Of a stretch of DNA of 64,000 bases, positions 34,151 to 34,450 are shown in pieces. Origin of the DNA: Escherichia coli (GTDB taxonomy: Bacteria; Pseudomonadota; Gammaproteobacteria; Enterobacterales; Enterobacteriaceae); NCBI RefSeq assembly GCF_003334255.1, contig NZ_QOWU01000009.1. One strand, 5' to 3'. The translations under genes and the position numbers were made by a program. The notes beneath the pieces were generated by a model. It was not told where the DNA came from, did no database searches, and was given only the letters and a program-made list of their open reading frames with translations. The first letter of the stretch is position 1, and every line of letters starts with the position of its first letter.

Positions 34151-34226
34151 GCGGGAATAGCTCAGTTGGTAGAGCACGACCTTGCCAAGGTCGGGGTCGC
34201 GAGTTCGAGTCTCGTTTCCCGCTCCA
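34151..34226 (+). tRNA. glyV: tRNA-Gly (GCC)
   Basis: GCGGGAATAGCTCAGTTGGTAGAGCACGACCTTGCCAAGGTCGGGGTCGCGAGTTCGAGTCTCGTTTCCCGCTCCA, first of three identical copies. Confidence 0.95.
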
Positions 34227-34262
34227 AAATTTGAAAAGTGCTGCAAAGCACAGACCACCCAA

Positions 34263-34338
34263 GCGGGAATAGCTCAGTTGGTAGAGCACGACCTTGCCAA
34301 GGTCGGGGTCGCGAGTTCGAGTCTCGTTTCCCGCTCCA
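34263..34338 (+). tRNA. glyX: tRNA-Gly (GCC)
   Basis: Second identical tRNA-Gly copy, preceded by 36-nt spacer. Confidence 0.95.
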
Positions 34339-34374
34339 AAATTTGAAAAGTGCTGCAAAGCACAGACCACCCAA

Positions 34375-34450
34375 GCGGGAATAGCTCAGTTGGTAGAGCA
34401 CGACCTTGCCAAGGTCGGGGTCGCGAGTTCGAGTCTCGTTTCCCGCTCCA
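34375..34450 (+). tRNA. glyY: tRNA-Gly (GCC)
   Basis: Third identical tRNA-Gly copy, preceded by an identical 36-nt spacer. Confidence 0.95.

Follow-up and report, generated by a model that had tools for sequence, protein, structure and literature searches.

The glyV-glyX-glyY operon of Escherichia coli with two identical spacers: structure, copy number, and spacer evolution

Results

The array and its place in the chromosome

In the window, the 64,000-nucleotide stretch of Escherichia coli DNA analyzed here, ARAGORN located three tRNA-Gly(GCC) genes on the + strand at 34151-34226, 34263-34338, and 34375-34450, all with the anticodon gcc at position 34. Each copy scored 69.1 bits against the Rfam tRNA model (RF00005), for which the gathering score is 29. 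Direct string comparison found the three 76-mers to be identical and the two spacers between them to be 36 nt each, both reading AAATTTGAAAAGTGCTGCAAAGCACAGACCACCCAA, and Tandem Repeats Finder reported a single array at 34151-34452 with a period of 112, 2.7 copies, 100% matches, and 0 indels. A perfect 112-nt repeat of this kind is far beyond chance. A preliminary description of this DNA, made from its letters, had claimed three identical tRNA-Gly(GCC) genes with identical 36-nt spacers, and the results agreed with it exactly, in coordinates and in sequence.

In E. coli, the identity elements read by glycyl-tRNA synthetase are the discriminator U73, the pairs G1:C72, C2:G71, and G3:C70, and the anticodon bases C35 and C36. 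The array tRNA begins with GCGGGAA and ends with TTCCCGC-T-CCA, giving G1:C72, C2:G71, G3:C70, U73, and CCA, and has the anticodon GCC; the glycine identity elements and a genome-encoded 3' CCA are both present in its sequence.

A 1.4-kb query around the array matched in every one of 5,426 complete E. coli genomes. Among the matches listed, RefSeq annotates orn (oligoribonuclease) upstream, three tRNA-Gly genes, and queG downstream on the opposite strand, placing the array between orn and queG and on the orn strand. The surrounding 25 kb is ~100% identical to K-12 MG1655 and its derivatives. These flanks and this match identify the array as the textbook E. coli operon glyV-glyX-glyY, located on the chromosome. 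The first gene, glyV (34151-34226, +; 76 nt with CCA encoded), is identified by ARAGORN, Rfam, and the RefSeq annotation of matching genomes, and glyX (34263-34338, +) and glyY (34375-34450, +), which have the same sequence, by ARAGORN, Rfam, and string comparison. Open reading frames drawn across the array, such as one of 104 amino acids at 34162-34476 (-), were rejected as mechanical frames inside tRNA genes.

Over 49.8 kb, the window differs from MG1655 at 39 positions, mostly at 54-59 kb, and comparisons with K-12 or J53 gave 36 to 39 differences clustered mostly in that same segment. The human isolate 23CRST014 differs at 9 positions over 49.8 kb and has a two-copy array. No genome identical to the window over 50 kb was found among complete E. 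coli genomes. About 30 kb upstream of the array, ARAGORN also located a tRNA-Phe(GAA) gene at 4342-4417 (-), which from its map position is probably pheU, a known island integration site.

Promoter, leader, terminator, and datA

An alignment of 130 nt of upstream sequence from about 20 genera, extending from Escherichia to Pantoea, Erwinia, and Morganella, showed GGGGGTTGCAG-N16-TCGTATAATGCGCCTCCCGT to be almost constant. In the window, this pattern corresponds to a -35 hexamer, TTGCAG, at 34066-34071 (+), preceded by a G-run, and a -10 hexamer, TATAAT, at 34088-34093 (+), 16 nt 3' of the -35. TTGC(A/G)G was kept in 20 of 21 aligned upstream regions from Enterobacterales, and TCGTATAATGCGC at the -10 was invariant across the aligned genera. 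Sequence and conservation likewise mark a GC-rich discriminator, GCGCCTC (GCGCCTCC), at 34094-34100 (+), a feature typical of stringently controlled stable-RNA promoters. Farther upstream, an A/T-rich tract at 34036-34059 (+) has an A-run at about -56 to -47 that recurs at the equivalent position in other aligned genera; it is UP-element-like in sequence and may act as one. A sigma-70 consensus scan reported no promoter at the array because TTGCAG shares just 3 of its 6 bases with the consensus, and the promoter was assigned instead from cross-genus conservation and the literature. Transcription probably starts at about 34100-34101, position 34101 being 7-8 nt 3' of the -10, and the glyVXY precursor synthesized by Kime et al. 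in 2014 starts at CCGTAACGACGCAGAAATG, which is position 34101 of the window (PMC3985628).

Kasho et al. (2024) reported that orn transcription largely ends upstream of glyV-X-Y and that glyV-X-Y RNA far exceeds orn RNA in abundance (PMC10950094). The preliminary description had placed the array behind a single strong promoter; that it is single is borne out by the conserved -35, -10, and discriminator together with the results of Kasho et al., while its strength is something we infer.

The 5' leader is 50 nt long (34101-34150, +), and RNA folding predicts a hairpin in it at 34102-34130 (-8.4 kcal/mol, z = -2.8). The outer stem of this hairpin, CGUAACG/CGUUACG, shows compensated changes between aligned genera, as in CGUGACG/UGUCACG. 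Beyond glyY, the operon terminator/attenuator at 34473-34509 (+) is predicted to consist of a hairpin at 34473-34500 (-15 kcal/mol, z = -2.1) followed by UUUUUGUUG. The terminator/attenuator TglyV-X-Y of Kasho et al. overlaps datA DnaA box 1 (PMC10950094), and in the window a DnaA box with 1 mismatch, ATATCCACA at 34469-34477, is overlapped by the hairpin and U-run at 34473-34509. With a single promoter upstream and a terminator overlapping DnaA box 1 downstream, in sequence identical to that of K-12, the three genes are organized as an operon.

The intergenic region after glyY, at 34451-34720, is the datA locus. Besides the box at 34469-34477, it has DnaA boxes on the + strand at 34536-34544 and 34698-34706 and on the - strand at 34710-34718. 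The sole two perfect TTATNCACA DnaA boxes of the 64-kb window are both in this region, with a perfect IHF consensus at 34601-34613 (-) between them. datA is known to lie downstream of glyVXY, and IHF binding at datA is controlled by transcription that continues past the operon from the glyVXY promoter (PMC5742627, PMC10950094). RefSeq annotates a 17-codon "hypothetical protein" (WP_010723271.1) at about 34684-34737 (+), within datA and overlapping the end of queG, and the putative promoter PyjeV described by Kasho et al. is in the same region (PMC10950094).

An unusual pair of identical spacers

Spacer 1 (34227-34262, +) is 36 nt long, of the type that we call S1, and the same as spacer 1 of K-12. 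It is made up of an A/U-rich single strand, AAAUUUGAAAA, a hairpin, GUGCU-GCAA-AGCAC, at 34238-34251, and then AGACCACCCAA, with a predicted folding energy of -7.2 kcal/mol. Spacer 2 of the window (34339-34374, +; hairpin at 34350-34363) is of type S1 too. K-12, by comparison, pairs the 36-nt S1 with a 35-nt S2 (AAATTTGAAAGTGCTGTAAGGCACAGACCACCCAA) that has one A fewer and two substitutions in the hairpin; relative to spacer 2 of the window, K-12 S2 differs at 34346 (one A fewer), 34356 (C/T), and 34359 (A/G). The window therefore departs from the reference pair S1 plus S2, an allelic difference that leaves operon membership unaffected. Between 9600 and 51000, the window differs from MG1655 by 2 single bases and these 3 S2-to-S1 differences and by nothing else.

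A 172-nt S1-tRNA-S1 probe had an exact one-piece match in 24 of 5,430 matching records. Four of these, laboratory-strain assemblies from the single series described below, were excluded and 4 more were arrays of 4 or 5 copies, leaving the three-copy S1-S1 allele of the window in about 16 of 5,426 complete E. coli genomes (0.3%). In the 37 other species with arrays of three genes, the two spacers were never identical. Identical spacers are the exception and not the rule, a point that the preliminary description had missed, along with the name of the operon and its adjacency to datA.

Copy number across E. coli

In the 5,426 genomes, the 76-nt tRNA sequence had 21,632 matches, of which only 8 were on plasmids. 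Single genomes had 2 to 9 matches and a median of 4, made up of 3 in the array and glyW. Array size was scored with allele-specific queries for which strict E-value cutoffs pass one full-length alignment only. These queries replaced an earlier count with a 60-nt S1 probe, which had been confounded by spacer variants (the 98.3% and 96.7% identity classes) and by the ERIC allele described below. Fifteen genomes had a one-copy array, 81 had two copies, 16 had four, and 1 (UTAK-1) had five, with three copies in ~98% of the 5,426. Contractions (96) thus outnumbered expansions (17), in counts that represent assemblies rather than independent events and in which some classes are swollen by repeated sampling of the same clones, with many "AVS" isolates among them. 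The array-size counts and the observed tRNA total agree within about 20, a residual that we attribute to artifactual laboratory-strain assemblies and to ERIC-type variants unscored by the queries. The preliminary description had called the array a substrate for unequal recombination and copy-number change and had proposed a comparison of copy number as a check; run on the complete genomes, that check upheld the idea, with arrays of one, two, four, and five copies found. Copy number does change, but rarely, and part of the calls may be assembly errors.

The variant arrays retain recognizable spacers. Two-copy arrays keep either an S1 or an S2-type spacer, with spans of 488 or 487 nt, and four-copy arrays have spans of 531 or 530 nt, the 531-nt form being S1,S1,S2 and the 530-nt form probably having two 35-nt spacers. 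The four-copy array of AGR5151 reads S1,S1,S2, and the five-copy array of UTAK-1 reads S1,S1,S1,S2. Strain 2013C-3277 has two copies in 2 independent assemblies. AVS0753 and AVS0226, wastewater isolates of one clone, have three copies (S1-S1) and two copies (S1 only), respectively, so that genomes with 100% identity over 16 kb of flanking sequence are one 112-nt unit apart, a difference that arose very recently or else comes from inconsistent assembly. Genomes of the "AVS" series are conspicuously common among the variant alleles.

MC1061, OV2, and three further genomes, all resembling K-12 derivatives and the first two labeled as laboratory strains, apparently have one tRNA-Gly(GCC) gene at the locus, compared with three in K-12. 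In the three further genomes, the window-derived probe has a 100% match. Copies were either deleted while these strains were kept in laboratories or collapsed when the genomes were assembled. Between 5 and 9 places with tRNA-Gly(GCC) were recorded in Stbl4, Rosetta2, BL21(RP), Origami2, BL21(DE3), XL1-Blue, and TOP10, all from one accession series. The "complete" chromosome record of BL21(DE3) (NZ_CP081489.1, 4489539-4495710) ends in a string of short repeat fragments derived from tRNA genes, IS elements, and partial RHS/VgrG genes, and it includes a spurious S1-S1 array of glycine-tRNA genes. Duplication events near the operon have also been reported under antibiotic stress (PMC8811037).

An ERIC-like insertion in spacer 1

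A 121-nt ERIC-like insertion lies between S1 and glyX in 1,606 of 5,426 E. coli genomes (29.6%). It is absent from the window, where the insertion point corresponds to 34262/34263. The insertion is an imperfect palindrome with a predicted folding energy of -46.6 kcal/mol, and other parts of the genome contain diverged copies of it with ~75% identity. Its position in the spacer means that the tRNA precursor of those strains has a long extra hairpin. Citrobacter, Pluralibacter, Silvania, Kluyvera, and Superficieibacter have homologous insertions at the corresponding site in spacer 1 or spacer 2.

Concerted evolution of the spacers and a covarying hairpin

When one genome of each species was scanned for the pattern, tandem tRNA-Gly(GCC) arrays proved to be widespread in Gammaproteobacteria; three genes are usual in Enterobacterales, and arrays in Aeromonas reach seven. 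Across 37 species, spacers within one genome were 91% identical (median), compared with 57% for same-position spacers between genomes, and both within-genome identities exceeded the between-genome values in 620 of 666 genome pairs. Spacers that resemble their neighbors more than their counterparts in other species indicate concerted evolution.

The plan of the spacer is constant in Enterobacteriaceae, with AAAUUUGAAA, a 5-bp hairpin whose loop is usually a GNRA-type tetraloop, and CACCACCCAA. The stem varies by genus, as GUGCU/AGCAC, GUAUC/GAUAC, GUGUC/GACAC, UGGCU/AGCCA, or GGCC/GGCC. In a covariance-model alignment of 135 junctions, which was fitted to the hairpin structure and so favors the pairing result, 95.5% of cells pair, compared with 75% in shuffles and 17-47% for slid partners. 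Double changes were seen at all 5 hairpin pairs, in 72 cells compared with 20.5 expected, and none of 500 shuffles reached as high a value. A covariance model was used because plain MAFFT alignment of the spacers failed to bring hairpins with loops of 4 nt and of 5 nt into register. Over half of the junctions, including those of Pantoea, Erwinia, Providencia, and others, lack the hairpin, and the element is therefore lineage restricted.

One possibility, for which covariation of the stem is the starting point but which we consider doubtful, is that the spacer hairpin is a functional RNA element that positions RNase E for direct entry or yields a stable fragment with its own role. Stable spacer-derived fragments are known from some other tRNA operons. 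If the hairpin does have such a role, homogenization of the array would be fast enough to show between isolates of one clone.

Discussion

The reading that best accounts for these data, and one that we hold with high confidence, is that the window contains the glyVXY operon, read as one transcript and cut by RNases, in which S2 was recently replaced by S1 through recombination within the array. One conserved sigma-70 stable-RNA promoter would drive a primary transcript of ~400 nt from a start near 34100, comprising the 50-nt leader, three identical tRNA-Gly(GCC) units separated by two spacers of 36 nt, and a trailer extending to the hairpin and U-run at 34473-34509. Part of this transcription would, from the literature, read through into the adjacent datA.

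Maturation of tRNA in E. coli is well described: RNase P makes the 5' ends, and exonucleases trim the 3' side to the encoded CCA. Removal of the glyVXY leader is accordingly most easily assigned to RNase P, which would form the mature 5' ends after RNase E had cut within single-stranded, A/U-rich stretches lying immediately 3' of the tRNAs, with 3' exonucleases then trimming to CCA. In vitro, RNase E uses direct entry to cut a glyVXY precursor that carries a 5' triphosphate (PMC3985628), its major site is 1 nt 3' of glyY and requires access to the single-stranded glyX-glyY spacer (PMC4191395), and cleavage of the precursor also needs the upstream glyX tRNA (PMC9841416). This published work supports removal of the spacers by RNases, as the preliminary description had expected. 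The substrate in those experiments was the K-12 transcript, from which the window differs in spacer 2.

Recombination within the array would keep the three units alike, and in the strain of the window it would very recently have overwritten the usual S2; the two spacers would be identical because a copy of S1 took its place. This could have happened by either of two routes, in both of which the identical 76-nt tRNA genes would supply the homology. S1 could have been copied over S2 by gene conversion, along a tract of 14 nt or more, or a 112-nt unit could have been lost, leaving S1 alone, and then been reduplicated. The intermediates of the second route exist in other genomes, as two-copy S1 arrays and in the AVS0753/AVS0226 pair, and S1,S1,S2, S1,S1,S1,S2, S1 alone, and S2 alone all occur. 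As the flanks of AVS0753 and AVS0226 are only 97% identical to the window, the S1-S1 allele appears to have arisen more than once.

A less likely explanation, though one that deserves serious weighing, is that the identical spacers were created by assembly or polishing, the true array being S1-S2 and the reads of one unit having "corrected" the other. An error of this kind would leave a sequence near-identical to K-12 around the array and differing there exactly at the three S1/S2 positions, as the window does, and the poor assembly of BL21(DE3) (CP081489) has a spurious S1-S1 array among its concatenated repeat fragments. J53-p1-pV-hybrid-1 has S1-S1 and its parent J53 has S1-S2, through a real laboratory event or an error, and AVS0753 and AVS0226, although isolates of one clone, have arrays that are one unit apart. 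Against this, S1-S1 is found in ~16 three-copy genomes belonging to lineages ~3% apart in flanking sequence, the expected intermediates (S1,S1,S2, S1,S1,S1,S2, and two-copy S1) are annotated, and two substitutions plus an indel are atypical of base-calling error. The two copies found in both independent assemblies of 2013C-3277 further indicate real variation at the locus. Replacement of S2 by recombination thus remains our preferred account.

We give very little credence to the idea that, instead of being a core chromosomal operon, the array is part of a mobile element or marks a hot spot of integration. Such a proposal could draw on the fact that tRNA genes are common integration sites and on the 30% of genomes that lack a one-piece match across the array. 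However, the interruption is the 121-nt ERIC-like repeat inside spacer 1 and not an island, a match is present in every genome with orn and queG annotated under it in nearly every one listed, the tandem triplet has the same promoter throughout Enterobacterales, and plasmid-borne tRNA matches number only 8 in 21,632. It is just as improbable that the region encodes a Y-RNA-like small RNA (YrlA) instead of or besides tRNAs, since the Rfam YrlA match (RF02553, 34176-34315, E = 1e-6) scores 40.2 bits, far below the gathering score of 69, and extends over half of glyV, the spacer, and half of glyX, so that it reflects the tRNA-like module of the model matching tRNA sequence. In addition, the annotation of the 50 kb surrounding the array includes no Ro/Rsr gene.

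All that is essential about this locus is already known from published work, including the operon itself, its promoter and terminator, processing by RNase E, and its place upstream of datA. The same literature makes glyVXY the source of most E. coli tRNA-Gly(GCC), a standard substrate of RNase E, and the origin of read-through that regulates datA. To this we add, modestly, copy number on a population scale, with a departure from three copies in only ~2% of 5,426 complete genomes, as well as concerted evolution of the spacers, a covarying hairpin, and a rare, perfectly homogenized allele. There is also a practical warning, as assemblies from the same clone disagree at the perfect 112-nt repeats of this locus.

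The closest known system is the glyV-glyX-glyY operon of K-12, at 94.7 min between orn and queG and upstream of datA. Its flanking genes are those of the window, and its tRNA, promoter, leader, spacer 1, trailer/terminator, and datA DnaA boxes are identical; the difference is that the 35-nt S2 of K-12 is replaced in the window by a 36-nt copy of spacer 1, producing the perfect 112-nt repeat. Unequal recombination is known from tyrT-tyrV of E. coli, where tandem identical tRNA genes and repeated spacer DNA permit gain and loss of units through the repeats, as in glyVXY, but with another tRNA, at another locus, and with far longer repeat units. The 121-nt insertion is like the ERIC/IRU intergenic repeats of enterobacteria, an assignment made by resemblance, including resemblance to the ERIC1R and ERIC2 primer sequences.

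In processing, the nearest parallels are the argX-hisR-leuT-proM and metT-leuW-glnUW-metU-glnVX operons. Like glyVXY, they are co-transcribed and cleaved by direct entry of RNase E at single-stranded A/U-rich sites by the tRNAs, and in all three operons RNase E is aided by adjacent single-stranded regions and a neighboring tRNA (PMC3985628, PMC4191395, PMC9841416). Those two operons carry mixtures of tRNAs, whereas glyVXY consists of three identical units, and for this reason the glyVXY array can also recombine with itself.
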